A stretch of 64,000 nt of DNA. It comes from a phage. Below, piece after piece: positions 4,715 to 52,544 of the stretch. Each line of letters opens with the position of its first letter. Position 1 is the stretch's first letter. A model generated the notes under the pieces. It had not been told where the DNA came from and searched no databases. It was given only the letters and a program-made list of their open reading frames with translations. The DNA lies in sequence record NC_101838.1. One strand, 5' to 3'. The translations under genes were made by a program, and so were the position numbers.

Positions 4715-5089
4715 ATGATCACCACTCAATATTCTGATATCGTGCTCGGCAAAGTTGATTCTAGCGATGCAGGTTTCAACTTTAAAGAAATTGAAATCAC
4801 TCTCACTGCTGATCACGTTGCTGGCGCAGTAGTTACCAAAACTGGCGCTCTGGCTAATAAAGATGGCACAGACACATTTGGTGTTCTGGTTGACCGTGCA
4901 CTTCTGCCGGACTCTGCTGGCAAAGTTAATCTGGCAGAGCCTCTGACTGTGGGTCAGAAATACAAATTAGTCGTTGCTGTTCGTGGCGTTACTTTCGCTA
5001 AAAAACACCTGAAAGTAGCCAGCGGCGAAGCTGCACCTGCTGCAGTTCTGGAAGCCCTCGAAGCCAAAGGCAACAAAGTTCAGGAATAA
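4715..5089 (+). CDS. head decoration or auxiliary capsid protein (putative)
   Basis: 124 aa, immediately upstream of major capsid gene; strongly optimised codon usage typical of abundant virion proteins. Confidence 0.35.
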   Translation: MITTQYSDIVLGKVDSSDAGFNFKEIEITLTADHVAGAVVTKTGALANKDGTDTFGVLVDRALLPDSAGKVNLAEPLTVGQKYKLVVAVRGVTFAKKHLKVASGEAAPAAVLEALEAKGNKVQE

Positions 5090-5135
5090 TCCTAGATCTT
5101 TGGGAAACAAATTTTAAAGTTATTTGGAGAAAATA

Positions 5136-6137
5136 ATGCGTAAAGATGATTTTGGTATTGTTGATTTAGGTGCTACTCTTGAACTGGTTCCACGCCAATA
5201 TCGCCTGATCACTGGTATGGATCTGTTTGAAACCCATCTCGGCACCTCAACAATCGCACAGATCGAACGTGTTGATGAAGTGGTTGGTGATATCGCCGCT
5301 CGCCGTCGTGGTGGTGAACGTAACTACGTTGATAGCGAACGTGCACAGATCAAAAACCTGAACATCCCGTTCTTCCCACTGGATAAGGGCATCACTGCTG
5401 CGGACGTTCAGAACTTCCGTCGCTACTTCACCCCAGATGCACCGAAAACTGTGCAAGACGTGGTTACTCGTGTAGTTCGTCGTATTCGTCTGAGCCACGA
5501 AACCCTGCGTGAAAAAGCTCTTTTTTCTGCAATTCTGGGTAAATCCTATGCGCCTGGCGACACCACCTGTCAGTATGACTATTACAAACTGTGGGGCGTT
5601 TCCCAGAAATCTATCGAAATCGATCCTAAAAATGCAGCACAGGACCCGATGGAAGTAATCGAAGATGCACGTCTGCACATTGCTCTGCAGGCTGGTGACA
5701 ACGCTGGTGCTTACAACATCATCGCGCTGTGCTCTCCGAAATTCTTCTCAGCACTGGTCCATCACCCGCTGGTAGAGCTGGCTTACACCTACTACAGCTC
5801 TTCTCAGGAACCGCTGCGTCGTCGTCTGGGTGCAGGTGGTGAGCAGAGCATTTACCGTGTGTTTGAACACAAGGGTATGACCTTCATCGAAGACATCTCT
5901 GGCAACATTCCGGACGGTGAGGCTCGTCTGATGCCTATGGGTATCGATCAGATGTTCCAGCTGCACTTTGCTCCGGCTGACACTCTGGAAGATGCAAACA
6001 CCCCAGCTCAAGAGCTGTATATGTGGTATAAACACTCTGCCTACCTGAGAGAACAGAAAATCGAATCTGAAACCTCTATGCTGGCAGTTAACACCCGTCC
6101 AGAGCTGGTTGTTAAAGTAACTCTGAAAAGTGAATAA
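5136..6137 (+). CDS. major capsid protein (lambda gpE-like fold suspected)
   Basis: 333 aa; GGAGA RBS 5 nt upstream of ATG 5136 (track start 5124 is a TTG); highly optimised codons (CTG, CGT, GGT, CCG); followed by strong intrinsic terminator; position after scaffold/decoration genes. Confidence 0.6.
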   Translation: MRKDDFGIVDLGATLELVPRQYRLITGMDLFETHLGTSTIAQIERVDEVVGDIAARRRGGERNYVDSERAQIKNLNIPFFPLDKGITAADVQNFRRYFTPDAPKTVQDVVTRVVRRIRLSHETLREKALFSAILGKSYAPGDTTCQYDYYKLWGVSQKSIEIDPKNAAQDPMEVIEDARLHIALQAGDNAGAYNIIALCSPKFFSALVHHPLVELAYTYYSSSQEPLRRRLGAGGEQSIYRVFEHKGMTFIEDISGNIPDGEARLMPMGIDQMFQLHFAPADTLEDANTPAQELYMWYKHSAYLREQKIESETSMLAVNTRPELVVKVTLKSE

Positions 6138-49014: not shown

Positions 49015-49581
49015 TTATTCAAACTGCAATAGTAAGTCCACCACCGCGCTAGGTCTGTCAACAAATTCCCCAGGTCCACATGCCCACAGAGGGTATCCGT
49101 CTACATACCGCCAAATCCAACCTGCGGTGTGGAGTTCGAGCAGGGCAGTGCCGTCCTTACTGTCAACCACTCTTTCCCACAGTGTCGGGCAGCGAAGCTT
49201 GAGGACCGGATCACCTCCCTTATACCCGCCCATGTAGATACCCATTGCAAAGTTCAGCATCATCTTTTTGTGCACTGATCTCTTACTGAGGGTGCTCATC
49301 ACTTCCTCTTTGTGAATGTTTGTAAGCTTCTCTTTGGCTACCCGCAGATCGTTGCAACCATTGTTCAGCAGATCTTCCAGACACTTGATCCGAAGGTCGT
49401 GAATGTCTTTGTCGTGTACCGTTGGCACAGGGTCGTAGCGGTATAGCACTGTTGATACAAGGTTGCTCGGGTGTGGGTCTGACAGCAACCCATAACCCCA
49501 ATACTCTTCTGTATCTGAAAGGACAAGACACCCAATGTCTCTGTCAAGCTTTCCTGTGTTGTAAGCCACATTGACCGCCAT
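49015..49581 (-). CDS. hypothetical protein
   Basis: 188 aa ORF from track in minus-strand early block. Confidence 0.35.
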   Translation of the reverse strand: MAVNVAYNTGKLDRDIGCLVLSDTEEYWGYGLLSDPHPSNLVSTVLYRYDPVPTVHDKDIHDLRIKCLEDLLNNGCNDLRVAKEKLTNIHKEEVMSTLSKRSVHKKMMLNFAMGIYMGGYKGGDPVLKLRCPTLWERVVDSKDGTALLELHTAGWIWRYVDGYPLWACGPGEFVDRPSAVVDLLLQFE

Positions 49582-49583
49582 GA

Positions 49584-49829
49584 CTATAGCTCCACTAGCA
49601 AAGTGCTTTCAAAGTGCCGTTCATGCAGACCGTTGTAAGGGACCACTTCCACAACGCCATCACGGACATACGGGGCCATCATGGTGGCATAATCTCCAAA
49701 CGGGTTGGTATTGTCACTAACCACAACCACCTTCTGCCCTTCCTTGGCAGAGTGCCAAATAGATCTGCACTTCATCAGGTGTTCGAGAGCTCCAGGTAAA
49801 ATTTTGTTACGTTCTTTACGGGTCTTCAT
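49584..49829 (-). CDS. hypothetical protein
   Basis: 81 aa ORF from track, tightly packed. Confidence 0.3.
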   Translation of the reverse strand: MKTRKERNKILPGALEHLMKCRSIWHSAKEGQKVVVVSDNTNPFGDYATMMAPYVRDGVVEVVPYNGLHERHFESTLLVEL

Positions 49830-50275
49830 AACAGATATAGCTCCTTATGAAAGTGGTCTTTTAATTTCTCGCTGAGAAACTTCTTGATACCTTCCTCTAA
49901 AGTGTTTTCGATGTAGTCCAGCTTAACTGCTTCGATGGACATATCATAGATCGCCAGCTCTAAGCTGTCAAGTCCCATCATAGCATGAACCATAAGATTT
50001 TCATCTTCAGATACATTCAGAGGACTTCCTATAACATCTGTAGGTAGGATAGTTTCCCAATTATTCTGGGGGGTGGTTCTCCCGCCATCCACTTTACGGC
50101 GCAGTTCGAAGGTGTTCTTAGTGTAGAACACTTCATAAGAAACGATACGACTATCGCTCTCATAATAAACGAAGTTCAGGTAGGAGCCTAGCCGCAGTCG
50201 GCAAACTTCTACCCCAAACCATTGTTTCTTATAAGAATTCAGGCTAATGCTGTCGCATTCACGCTTGCTCAACAC
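49826..50275 (-). CDS. hypothetical protein
   Basis: 149 aa ORF from track, overlapping stop/start with neighbour. Confidence 0.3.
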   Translation of the reverse strand: MLSKRECDSISLNSYKKQWFGVEVCRLRLGSYLNFVYYESDSRIVSYEVFYTKNTFELRRKVDGGRTTPQNNWETILPTDVIGSPLNVSEDENLMVHAMMGLDSLELAIYDMSIEAVKLDYIENTLEEGIKKFLSEKLKDHFHKELYLL

Positions 50276-50291
50276 GGCTATCTCCTTTTTG

Positions 50292-50525
50292 TTAATCTTC
50301 GTAAATCAGGATTTCTGCTTTAGGTTTTCGTGCTTTCAAGTCCAGCTCTATCCAGTGCACCATAGCTGTTTCAAGAAAAACAGCTTGGATGCATCCGTCC
50401 TCAGCGTGCCCCACCAACATAACAAGATCTTCACCTTCGTCATCTGCATCACGAACATACAGAATCTCTCCAGATTCAAAGTCTTTCACAACCTGATTGC
50501 TGGATAATTTACGAATTTTTGCCAT
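50292..50525 (-). CDS. small paralog family member 3
   Basis: 77 aa; shares G-E-[IV]-[VL] ... conserved Cys ... [IV][FY] pattern with the two adjacent genes. Confidence 0.35.
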   Translation of the reverse strand: MAKIRKLSSNQVVKDFESGEILYVRDADDEGEDLVMLVGHAEDGCIQAVFLETAMVHWIELDLKARKPKAEILIYED

Positions 50526-50526
50526 A

Positions 50527-50790
50527 TCAGAAACCCTCTAAAAAGCTTTTGTAGAAAATAATTTCAGTGTCCACACCTGTCACGATCTTATCGTTTCGGA
50601 TCTCATCTGTGAGGTAGGTATCGAAACGTAGTACTTGTGTGGTATTGTCACACATCCACTCAGCTGTGACCATTGCGAAAATCTTAGCATCTTCATTATC
50701 TGGTGTGAATGTTACCACCTCGCCGCACTTAAACTTTTCGATAGGTTGAGTGTTAGCTTTCGGTTCTGCGATAGTGATTTTCGTGGTCAT
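50527..50790 (-). CDS. small paralog family member 2
   Basis: 87 aa; tandem with 50292 and 50790 ORFs. Confidence 0.35.
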   Translation of the reverse strand: MTTKITIAEPKANTQPIEKFKCGEVVTFTPDNEDAKIFAMVTAEWMCDNTTQVLRFDTYLTDEIRNDKIVTGVDTEIIFYKSFLEGF

Positions 50791-51056
50791 TACTCTTCCT
50801 CCATAGTTTCACCAAATACTTCGATACGAGCATCGAGCTCGGTTGCTTTCAGCTCCCCAACAAAATCTTTTAGTTCTTTCTCGTCCAGATCGTAAGCCCA
50901 CACACAAGAAGAACATGCAGATTTCACAATCAGCAGCGTAGATACACGACCTGACTCTGTGATCATGCTCACAATGGTTCCCACAGGGAACGTGTTGATA
51001 GCTTTTTTAACTGGGCGTTCAGCTTTAATTACTACCTCTGTTGCCATAAATAACAT
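50790..51056 (-). CDS. small paralog family member 1
   Basis: 88 aa; tandem with the two downstream genes. Confidence 0.35.
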   Translation of the reverse strand: MLFMATEVVIKAERPVKKAINTFPVGTIVSMITESGRVSTLLIVKSACSSCVWAYDLDEKELKDFVGELKATELDARIEVFGETMEEE

Positions 51057-51062
51057 CCTCTC

Positions 51063-52544
51063 TTACTTAGCGTACTCGATTAATTCCACAGTTTTCCCAA
51101 AGCTCGGGATATAATTTTTATTATACCCTTCGGTGAGAACCCATAAAGTATCGTACTTTTTCCACTTGTTGTCAACAGCCTTTTGTTCAAAGTTATGCTC
51201 AAAGTAGAGGTCGGTAAGGACGATGACATCTTTTGCATTCGGTATGTTAGCATCCAGATACTCGAACACGCAGGCGGCTGTTGTGCCCCATGTTGAGTGG
51301 ACCTCATAGTTAATCATCTCATCGATGTTACCGCGAGTGTATACTTTAACCTCTCCAACCTCCGTTGACCAACAGAACATAGTAACCTTAAACTCTTTAT
51401 ACAAATTGCACAACCCGGTGATCTCATTGAACATTTTCTTTAAAGTTCTTTGTGAGATCGACCCAGAAACGTCTAAAGCCACTACAATATCTATAGTGTT
51501 TTCCGGATTACGACCAGGAACAATAACGTGTTGATTCTTGTTTATAGCTCCAACTTTTCGCATTGTGGTGGTCAAAGACCCAGATCGGCGACCAGGTTTT
51601 CTGTAGGTTAACTCAGCCTTTCTTTTAGATAACATACGTTGCTTAATAATATCTATATAATTGATTACAGGCTTGCCTCTGTTTTTGACAAACTCGCGCA
51701 CCGCCTCGGGACAACGACCTCCTGAAGCTTGCATTGCTGCTTCCAACATGTCACCAGAGTCCTGCATGGCCTGATCTTTGTCAGATTGACTGATTACTGG
51801 TTGCGGCTGATCATACCCCATAGCCTTTCCAAGATCATCACTAGTGCCACCGTTCCCGCTCATGTGATCATCGGTTTGTCGTTTATCTCCTTGGGAGTTC
51901 TCACCTTTACCGTTCTTACTTTTACCGCCATTCTGATCTCTTTGTTTATCAAGAACTGCATAGACGTTCTCAGCAATCCATCCATGAAACCTCATGTCGC
52001 AGTAGCAATTAGCTAAGAAGCCAAAAGGCTTACCTTTTACGAACTCAGTGCTTTTCCCCTTCGGGAAGAAAACACAAGGAGGCTTGCTAAAGTCAACCAC
52101 AAGACCTGTGTTGATAACGTGATCACAAGCAATATTGAACAGTTCCGGCTCAAAGCTTTTACCACGGACCAGATGATCACAGATAATATGCCCCACCTCA
52201 TGTGACAGAAGAAAGGCCACCTCTTTCACAGATTTTGGGGAATAGAAAACCTCAGCCATCTCAAACTGCTTGTCAGTCAGAGATGCTTTAAGAATGGTTT
52301 TACGCTCATCCGCCAACCCCATAATGAACTCAGGGCTGTAGTAGATGCGTTTATGGTCGGTTGCCATGGTGGAGCACCATGTGTGGTTTTCTACGAACTG
52401 CAACCCTGACAGTAGTGTGCCATAAAACGGCAGCTTTTCAAGGAGATACATACGTGCAGCCTGCAACATTCTCAGGGCATCATCTTTCTGCGAGGCAATG
52501 ATTTCTGAACTTCTGCTATCCATTAAAACTCCAGAAGGGGCCAT
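51063..52544 (-). CDS. HExxH metallopeptidase-like domain plus von Willebrand factor A domain protein
   Basis: 493 aa; N-terminal LLSHEVGHIICDH zinc-binding motif; C-terminal vWA MIDAS motif IVVALDVSGSIS. Confidence 0.6.
   Translation of the reverse strand: MAPSGVLMDSRSSEIIASQKDDALRMLQAARMYLLEKLPFYGTLLSGLQFVENHTWCSTMATDHKRIYYSPEFIMGLADERKTILKASLTDKQFEMAEVFYSPKSVKEVAFLLSHEVGHIICDHLVRGKSFEPELFNIACDHVINTGLVVDFSKPPCVFFPKGKSTEFVKGKPFGFLANCYCDMRFHGWIAENVYAVLDKQRDQNGGKSKNGKGENSQGDKRQTDDHMSGNGGTSDDLGKAMGYDQPQPVISQSDKDQAMQDSGDMLEAAMQASGGRCPEAVREFVKNRGKPVINYIDIIKQRMLSKRKAELTYRKPGRRSGSLTTTMRKVGAINKNQHVIVPGRNPENTIDIVVALDVSGSISQRTLKKMFNEITGLCNLYKEFKVTMFCWSTEVGEVKVYTRGNIDEMINYEVHSTWGTTAACVFEYLDANIPNAKDVIVLTDLYFEHNFEQKAVDNKWKKYDTLWVLTEGYNKNYIPSFGKTVELIEYAK

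Follow-up and report, generated by a model that had tools for sequence, protein, structure and literature searches.

Three small genes on the minus strand

The window analysed here, a stretch of 64,000 nucleotides (nt) from phage sequence record NC_101838.1, belongs to a Vequintavirus (an rV5-like E. coli myovirus). Between positions 50292 and 51056 it carries three small genes that lie head to tail on the minus strand, genes 1 and 2 overlapping by 1 nt (TAATG) and genes 2 and 3 being separated by a 1-nt spacer. Over 100 GenBank phages share 96-98% identity with the 4 kb round this array. An initial annotation, made from the sequence alone, had described the three as a tandem array of diversified paralogous early genes, of a kind frequently found to encode host-takeover or anti-defence factors. 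We find that genes 1 and 2 are very probably paralogues, that gene 3 probably belongs to the same family, and that the array joins one fast-evolving position to two strongly conserved ones. The genes and the start region of the first are as follows:

50790..51047, minus strand: gene 1, 85 amino acids (aa) from the second ATG (the listed open reading frame, ORF, reaches 51056 and has 88 aa); the variable "slot 1" member, an acidic predicted small beta-barrel; rV5 ORF14, bas54_0054, PHROG phrog_10698 (full-length, E=6e-48)
50527..50790, minus strand: gene 2, 87 aa, isoelectric point (pI) 4.5; an extremely conserved putative paralogue; rV5 ORF15, bas54_0053, PHROG phrog_12861 (full-length, E=9e-62)
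50292..50525, minus strand: gene 3, 77 aa, pI 4.6; the most divergent putative paralogue, with strongly conserved orthologues; rV5 ORF16, bas54_0052, PHROG phrog_12046 (full-length, E=5e-55)
51041..51061, minus strand: translation start region of gene 1 (AGAGG ... ATGGCAA), from sequence

All three PHROGs are labelled "unknown function" and are kept as separate families. The three consecutive ORFs first listed are indeed present (50790-51056, 50527-50790 and 50292-50525), with the start of gene 1 corrected. Translation of gene 1 most likely begins at the second ATG (51047), giving 85 rather than 88 aa, because the Shine-Dalgarno sequence GAGAGG abuts the first ATG and lies 9 nt 5' of the second, because its homologues all start with MAT, MST or MTT, and because the rV5 record gives 85 aa. 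A repeat search inside the array found a single weak DNA repeat (21 nt, 71%), between this start region (51041-51061) and the start of gene 3 (50519-50539). We also note a spurious plus-strand ORF of 86 aa (window 50247-50507) that overlaps gene 3 and exceeds it in length, so that naive longest-ORF calling would lose the real gene.

Homology of the three proteins

Given that pairwise BLASTP among the three proteins gives no significant similarity (E of at least 0.68), the motif skeleton that first suggested a family could by itself have been a product of chance. Profile comparison by hhalign, made with small family alignments, aligns the families of genes 1 and 2 over 75 colinear columns (P=7.7e-5) and those of genes 1 and 3 over 62 columns (P=1.7e-3). 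Column-shuffled controls (n=150) never reach the real scores, which are 28.6 against 10.4±2.0 for families 1 and 2, and 21.5 against 9.8±1.7 for families 1 and 3.

An exhaustive search of 1.84 billion representative proteins with the family-1 hidden Markov model (HMM) returned five matches in all. One of them, the 83-aa protein P0039, matches the profile over its full length (E=4.5e-4) and is also similar to gene 2 in a plain BLASTP comparison (E=3e-5); judged by these two matches, P0039 is a bridging sequence between families 1 and 2. Once P0039 and the Murica-type paralogues described below had been added, the enriched family-1 HMM recovered gene 2 at E=3.3e-7 among the 65 non-overlapping ORFs of the window, the next best standing at 0.39. 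By these profile comparisons genes 1 and 2 are very probably homologous, that is, paralogues.

The direct hhalign comparison of genes 2 and 3 is marginal (P=0.03, probability 1.6%), so the link of gene 3 to the family is a transitive one. It runs through a merged profile of families 1 and 2, which aligns with family 3 over 68 of 77 residues (90.4% probability, P=1.4e-6, unrelated ORFs reaching at most 7%) and with gene 3 as a single sequence at 87% (score 33.7). Against this last score, shuffled controls reach at most 15.1; the best unrelated ORF scores 17.6 among 40 window ORFs of up to 250 aa and 15.7 among 106 ORFs from related loci. By this route, gene 3 is probably a paralogue of genes 1 and 2 as well, a conclusion that we hold a little less firmly than that for the first pair.

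Word-indexed protein searches returned close Vequintavirus relatives only. The neighbouring ORF17 and ORF18 were considered as further members and rejected, since neither gives a profile score (hhalign probability for ORF17, which served as a negative control, 0.15%). Another of the five HMM matches, the metagenomic protein P0038 (197 aa), was judged to be probably a beta-repeat protein with no relation to the family. It consists of about four near-identical repeats of some 50 residues ("VAWLDLSN..GWQGPIAFGG..") and matches the core of the family-1 profile, in the central strands, three times (E=7e-5).

Two features are invariant across the superfamily, namely the glycine of a G-[TE]-[IV]-[VL] motif and the isoleucine of a C-terminal x-I-x-[IVL] strand. 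The mid-protein cysteine is absent in the Murica gp013 type, in P0039 and in P0012, and is shifted in gene 2. Acidity is global rather than a positional motif (pI 4.2-5.0, net charge -4 to -9).

Predicted fold

AlphaFold2 models of genes 1 and 3 were made independently, from separate alignments, and their strands were assigned by DSSP. Both are all-beta. The model of gene 1 (predicted local distance difference test, pLDDT, 74; predicted template-modelling score, pTM, 0.59) has strands at residues 25-29, 35-45, 48-53, 58-63 and 65-78, and that of gene 3 (pLDDT 66.5, pTM 0.54) at 21-26, 32-42, 45-50, 55-60 and 70-74. Under the merged-profile alignment, which uses sequence only, the strands of the two models coincide, three of them to the residue. 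Fold matches of both models in the PDB are of the SH3/Tudor/PWWP type, with 6kco, 6kcp, 7uwz, 3ntk and 4q5w common to the two lists. It is likely, as far as the models can be trusted, that genes 1 and 3 share a five-stranded SH3/Tudor-like beta-barrel fold.

Searched against BFVD, the gene 1 model found its orthologue and a Murica-type paralogue, the latter at a template-modelling (TM) score of 0.80. At rank 8 stood a 78-aa protein of Vequintavirus naam; this is probably the gene 3 orthologue recovered by structure, because the naam orthologue of gene 3 has 78 codons. As for membership in a described SH3, Tudor, PWWP or KOW family by sequence, no Pfam match rose above noise and no PDB or NCBIfam match was obtained.

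Copy number, junction and cassette exchange

The array lies between two genes that serve as synteny anchors, and the body of gene 1 forms an exchangeable segment:

51063..52544, minus strand: upstream neighbour, a DUF2201_N metallopeptidase with a VWA-like domain (Pfam PF13203, 2e-28; PF09967, 4e-11)
49826..50275, minus strand: downstream neighbour, ORF17 (PHROG 6790; BLASTP to GAP31_034 2e-8, to KP12_35 2e-3)
50802..51033, minus strand: exchangeable cassette, body of gene 1, delimited by blastn breakpoints against Murica

The family is confined to Vequintavirus and its close relatives, and in genera without the array ORF17 follows directly after the metallopeptidase. In Seunavirus GAP31 there are 0 copies, and the metallopeptidase and ORF17 homologue overlap; Klebsiella phage KP12 also has 0 copies and carries a homing endonuclease at the junction. 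No family member was found at the junction of A73 or phiTE, and profile scans of the Seunavirus, Mydovirus-like, A73 and Certrevirus loci revealed no distant one. The 86-aa proteins GAP31_032 and KP12_38, with a "GDRV" motif, were tried as relatives and rejected (probability 1%).

A single junction member, P0039 and its variants, is present in the L007/L022-L025 lineage, whose metallopeptidase is 61% identical. The three-gene form occurs in 73 of 117 GenBank phage records. The other 44 have a four-gene form (the Murica type), found also in the distant metagenomic lineage L011, in which two paralogues replace gene 1. Identity between these two, gp013 and gp014, is 39% (E=1e-11), and their identity to gene 1 is about 40%. 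Genomes of the single-copy lineage contain a dispersed second member some 24 kb away, flanked by a phosphatase-like gene and a macro-domain region.

At the DNA level, the window and Murica match at about 96% identity on either side of a segment bounded by 51033 and 50802; within it 231 nt here stand against 501 unrelated nt (gp013 and gp014) there. Judged by this alignment, slot 1 is swapped as a cassette, with breakpoints inside conserved gene ends.

Set against these results, the proposal of a tandem array of three small paralogous genes of low identity holds up well: profile statistics, the bridging sequence P0039, the like predicted folds of genes 1 and 3 and the variation in copy number all speak for it, and the similarity is significant by profile methods though not pairwise. 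Comparison with relatives yields 0, 1, 3 or 4 copies across lineages, and duplication at the locus can be demonstrated in gp013/gp014. As to the expected common fold, the models of genes 1 and 3, with pLDDT no higher than 74 and 66.5, agree in strand order, strand positions and PDB neighbours. Of the motif skeleton, the glycine motif and the C-terminal motif are real, whereas the "conserved Cys" is no feature of the family and the "acidic stretch" is a general acidity.

Several observations on the surroundings may be added. Across Vequintavirinae the junction (window about 50276-51062; L003 about 4906-4922; L004 4894-5403) is a hot spot for insertions, being empty, occupied by a homing endonuclease, or filled with one, three or four barrel genes. 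The homologue of ORF19 (window 49015-49581) is tandemly duplicated in the single-copy lineage (L007 5938-6531 and 6577-7128; L022-L025 about 4905-6100), and tandem duplication of small genes thus recurs in this block. The dispersed member (L010 2210-3600; L018/L019 1800-3200) has a gene for a 211-aa NT5C-like phosphatase on one side and a 142-aa gene on the other, and a macro-domain protein is encoded a few genes downstream of it; this block, too, probably consists of accessory or counter-defence genes. The metallopeptidase/VWA gene at 51063-52544 is one intact ORF of 493 aa here and is split into ORF12 and ORF13 in the rV5 record. The labels "HNH endonuclease" for this gene (phrog_1314) and "tail protein" for ORF17 (phrog_6790) are unsupported by Pfam or context (NC_041871, NC_019400, NC_020201) and look like propagated mis-annotations. 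Finally, sixteen GenBank "Campylobacter phage" records (MG0656xx, host C. jejuni) are 95-96% identical to rV5-like coliphages across this region; on this sequence identity, their attribution to C. jejuni looks doubtful.

Selection regimes

Nonsynonymous (dN) and synonymous (dS) divergence of the window genes was computed against the diverged L011 lineage. For gene 2, dN is 0.020, dS 1.23 and their ratio (omega) 0.016; for gene 3 the values are 0.022, 0.51 and 0.044. Every neighbouring gene has a dN of 0.13-0.58, with dS mostly saturated, and slot-1 orthologues have a dN of 0.25-0.31. Across the 117 phage records gene 2 keeps at least 94% amino-acid identity, and genes 2 and 3 together at least 87-94%. 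Clearly, genes 2 and 3 are translated, and no other protein of the 6-kb block is as constrained as theirs.

The junction gene of the single-copy lineage has a dN of 0.15-0.20 and an omega of 0.31-0.53, against a dN of 0.006-0.057 and an omega of 0.04-0.13 for flanking genes of similar dS. The array is one fast, exchangeable position combined with two that are nearly frozen.

Dispensability and expression

A genome-wide transposon map of phage Bas54 has been obtained by HIDEN-SEQ (10.1101/2025.11.20.689424). The coordinates used there agree with those of phage MaxBurger, and MaxBurger carries the same three genes. On that map bas54_0054, bas54_0053 and bas54_0052 are all classed as "Non-essential" in E. 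coli K-12, with 17/17, 13/15 and 12/12 TA sites disrupted (10.1101/2025.11.20.689424). Genes 1-3 are almost certainly accessory, and dispensable in this host.

One comparison in the same work sets K-12 against a clinical isolate (10.1101/2025.11.20.689424). According to the resampling sheets of its supplement, the comparison singles out as significant the MoxR gene bas54_0063 (log2 fold change -7.23, q=0) and 26 other genes; the metallopeptidase gene bas54_0055 is depleted as well (-2.20, q=0.009). The authors validated MoxR against a predicted defence system, DS-28 (10.1101/2025.11.20.689424). In supplementary file 9 of the preprint, the sheet headed "resampling_K-12_vs_CFE303" logs a "311" sample, and the sheet that follows holds identical numbers (10.1101/2025.11.20.689424); as these sheets stand, the isolate's label is thus ambiguous between CFE303 and CFE311. 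Because MoxR and the VWA-metallopeptidase are, by these sheets, conditionally required in the same clinical isolate, the comparison suggests that the two form a counter-defence pair; their genes lie about 4 kb apart and on opposite strands (MoxR on the plus strand).

Genes 1-3 belong to a minus-strand block headed by an Srd-like anti-sigma/HNH-like gene, which lies upstream of the metallopeptidase. The rV5 record has predicted sigma70-type promoters, including P11 upstream of the Srd-like gene; our own scans for promoter and terminator consensus sequences were uninformative. From gene order and these predicted promoters, early expression of genes 1-3 is plausible. In the literature on Vequintavirus early transcription and anti-defence screens, the HIDEN-SEQ preprint is the sole relevant work that we found. 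Similarity to known anti-defence proteins was found in none of the libraries searched, of which PADLOC covers defence systems and none was aimed at anti-defence families.

Interpretation

How can one position of the array change so readily while its two companions hardly change at all? The explanation that we somewhat favour as a whole starts from one ancestral small gene that would have arisen within the Vequintavirus lineage, at the junction of the metallopeptidase/VWA gene and ORF17. It would have grown from one copy to three or four by old tandem duplications, with one lineage also acquiring a second locus, and each product would be an acidic (net charge -6 to -8), free-standing SH3/Tudor-like barrel of about 80 residues. 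Early in infection the genes may share a transcript with the Srd-like anti-sigma gene. Each barrel might then bind or inhibit a partner protein stoichiometrically. For genes 2 and 3 this would be a host or phage component that does not vary, and for the slot-1 variants a partner that varies among host strains, for example a defence or surface-associated factor. This binding mechanism, taken by itself, is a tentative proposal that we hold to be rather doubtful.

A number of points weigh against the favoured explanation. At the level of homology, these are the lack of pairwise BLASTP signal and the marginal direct comparison of genes 2 and 3, which leave the membership of gene 3 resting on the merged profile and on medium-confidence predicted structures. 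At the level of fold, support comes from moderate-confidence models of genes 1 and 3, barrels of the SH3-like type are very widespread, and the Foldseek matches combine probabilities of 0.9-1.0 and TM scores of 0.45-0.63 with weak E-values (at least 0.05). For a binding function in particular, sequence profile searches of Pfam, NCBIfam, PADLOC and the PDB returned noise only for genes 1-3; matches to Kelch_HCF, BrnT and vimentin lay far below thresholds and were rejected. Our literature search found no temporal transcriptome for any Vequintavirus and no phenotype report for genes 1-3. Finally, in the supplementary resampling sheets bas54_0054, bas54_0053 and bas54_0052 are not depleted in the clinical isolate relative to K-12 (log2 fold changes +0.46, +0.33 and -1.32; q=1, 1 and 0.68; 10.1101/2025.11.20.689424). 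Given that these sheets cover one host, they are weak negative evidence on a conditional requirement.

The alternative that fares best is that all members are fast-evolving arms-race proteins, each directed against a different host immune system. Their accessory status would suit this, as would their place in a block with one validated (MoxR) and one probable (metallopeptidase) counter-defence gene, and slot 1 behaves as expected, with cassette exchange, changes in copy number and a raised omega. Small acidic proteins are, moreover, frequent among known inhibitors. What makes this reading unlikely is genes 2 and 3: with dN/dS values of 0.016 and 0.044 and identities of at least 87-94% in all 117 GenBank relatives, they do not carry an arms-race signature. 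In the one clinical-isolate comparison, as far as its supplementary sheets go, no member shows conditional essentiality, and no likeness to known anti-defence proteins emerged from the libraries searched, none of them dedicated to anti-defence. The initial characterisation of the genes as "diversified" is thus apt for slot 1, whereas few proteins of the region are as conserved as those of genes 2 and 3. As for the hypothesis of host takeover or anti-defence first put forward, dispensability in K-12 fits an accessory role, and the single clinical-isolate comparison, to the extent of its supplementary sheets, gave no conditional requirement.

A more ambitious version of the binder proposal is a two-tier module. 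Here genes 2 and 3 would form a core acting on an essential, non-evolving host machine, for instance RNA polymerase/sigma70, beside the Srd-like protein, and slot 1 would supply specificity or decoy subunits for strain-variable factors, or would retarget the MoxR/VWA-metallopeptidase machine. We regard this as a long shot.

Alternatively, the barrels could be adaptor or specificity subunits of a MoxR ATPase/VWA-metallopeptidase anti-defence machine, retargeted by each swap of slot 1. VWA proteins typically work through bound partners, as in MoxR-VWA pairs such as RavA-ViaA. In each lineage examined, the junction copies follow directly on the VWA-metallopeptidase gene; the resampling sheets give MoxR and the metallopeptidase alike as conditionally required in one clinical isolate, and MoxR has been validated against DS-28. 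Genes 1-3, by contrast, are not depleted in that isolate according to the same sheets. Furthermore, Seunavirus, Mydovirus-like phages and Certrevirus keep the metallopeptidase (and MoxR where seen) without any family member, and the dispersed copy sits in an unrelated locus, near phosphatase and macro-domain genes. An adaptor role seems improbable to us.

We judge it just as improbable that genes 1-3 are unrelated ORFans that converged on a small beta-rich fold, their motif skeleton being chance combined with a generic SH3-like pattern. The pairwise BLASTP result, the three separate PHROGs and the hhalign probability of 1.6% between genes 2 and 3 would agree with it, and small phage proteins very often have SH3-like barrels, with many weak matches in BFVD. 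It has to contend with full-length colinear alignments whose P values (7.7e-5 to 1.4e-6) lie far outside both the shuffled nulls and those of about 150 real ORFs, with the bridge between families 1 and 2, and with duplication within the slot (gp013/gp014). Length, position and orientation also agree, and other small beta-rich neighbours (ORF17, ORF18, GAP31_032) score nothing. For genes 1 and 2 convergence is largely refuted. Lastly, that the genes are needed only in cis, as an RNA or DNA element, is unlikely because gene 2 is close to saturated at its synonymous sites (dS 1.2).

Returning to old duplicates that encode accessory barrels under two regimes, their interest is partly one of bookkeeping, as three families of "unknown function" become one, with a predicted fold, a genus-specific origin, an expansion from one to four copies, a cassette and two selection regimes. 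The locus is also a compact and cheap experimental target: its phage group (rV5-like/BASEL Bas48-59) is used in therapy and biocontrol, and transposon libraries exist. For the frozen pair, genes 2 and 3, a conserved partner is to be expected, which could be retrieved through its binding, and the slot-1 gene is a candidate determinant of host range or counter-defence. If the two-tier module or the retargeting of the MoxR/VWA machine were true, the array would represent a new family of SH3-like effectors of phages in which a swappable cassette for specificity is built in; should no binding partner emerge, the locus would be an ordinary set of dispensable phage ORFans.

Comparison with known systems

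The closest known entities are the genes themselves, as PHROGs 10698, 12861 and 12046; what that database keeps as three unrelated families is here joined, with a predicted fold, a copy history and selection regimes. At the fold level, the models resemble SH3-like, Tudor, PWWP and chromo barrels (6kco, 2eqk, 3ntk, 7uwz), with which a core of about 50-60 residues aligns at a root mean square deviation of 2.0-3.0 A and at TM scores, normalised to the small target, of up to 0.6. The likeness is between medium-confidence models and known structures, and with 8-22% identity it comes without a sequence relationship. Unlike those barrels, the phage proteins are acidic and free-standing, have an extra N-terminal segment, and present neither an aromatic cage nor a ligand-binding motif of a known kind.

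With MoxR AAA+/VWA systems of the RavA-ViaA type, and with the MoxR counter-defence gene of Bas54, the likeness is one of neighbourhood only, the array lying directly after the VWA-metallopeptidase gene. The barrel genes differ from that pair in lacking its phenotype, in being absent from other genera that have the pair, and in having no sequence relationship to it.

Tandem families of small accessory early genes are known from large lytic phages, such as in the early regions of T4 and T5 and in the host-takeover module of SPO1. Like these, the array is short, packed, co-oriented and non-essential, stands beside takeover genes (Srd-like, MoxR) and is marked by duplication and cassette exchange. 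It differs from them in having no known toxicity, target or phenotype, and in that two of its three members are unusually conserved. The array is an ordinary kind of phage accessory family, and its mixture of fast and frozen evolution is its only unusual trait.

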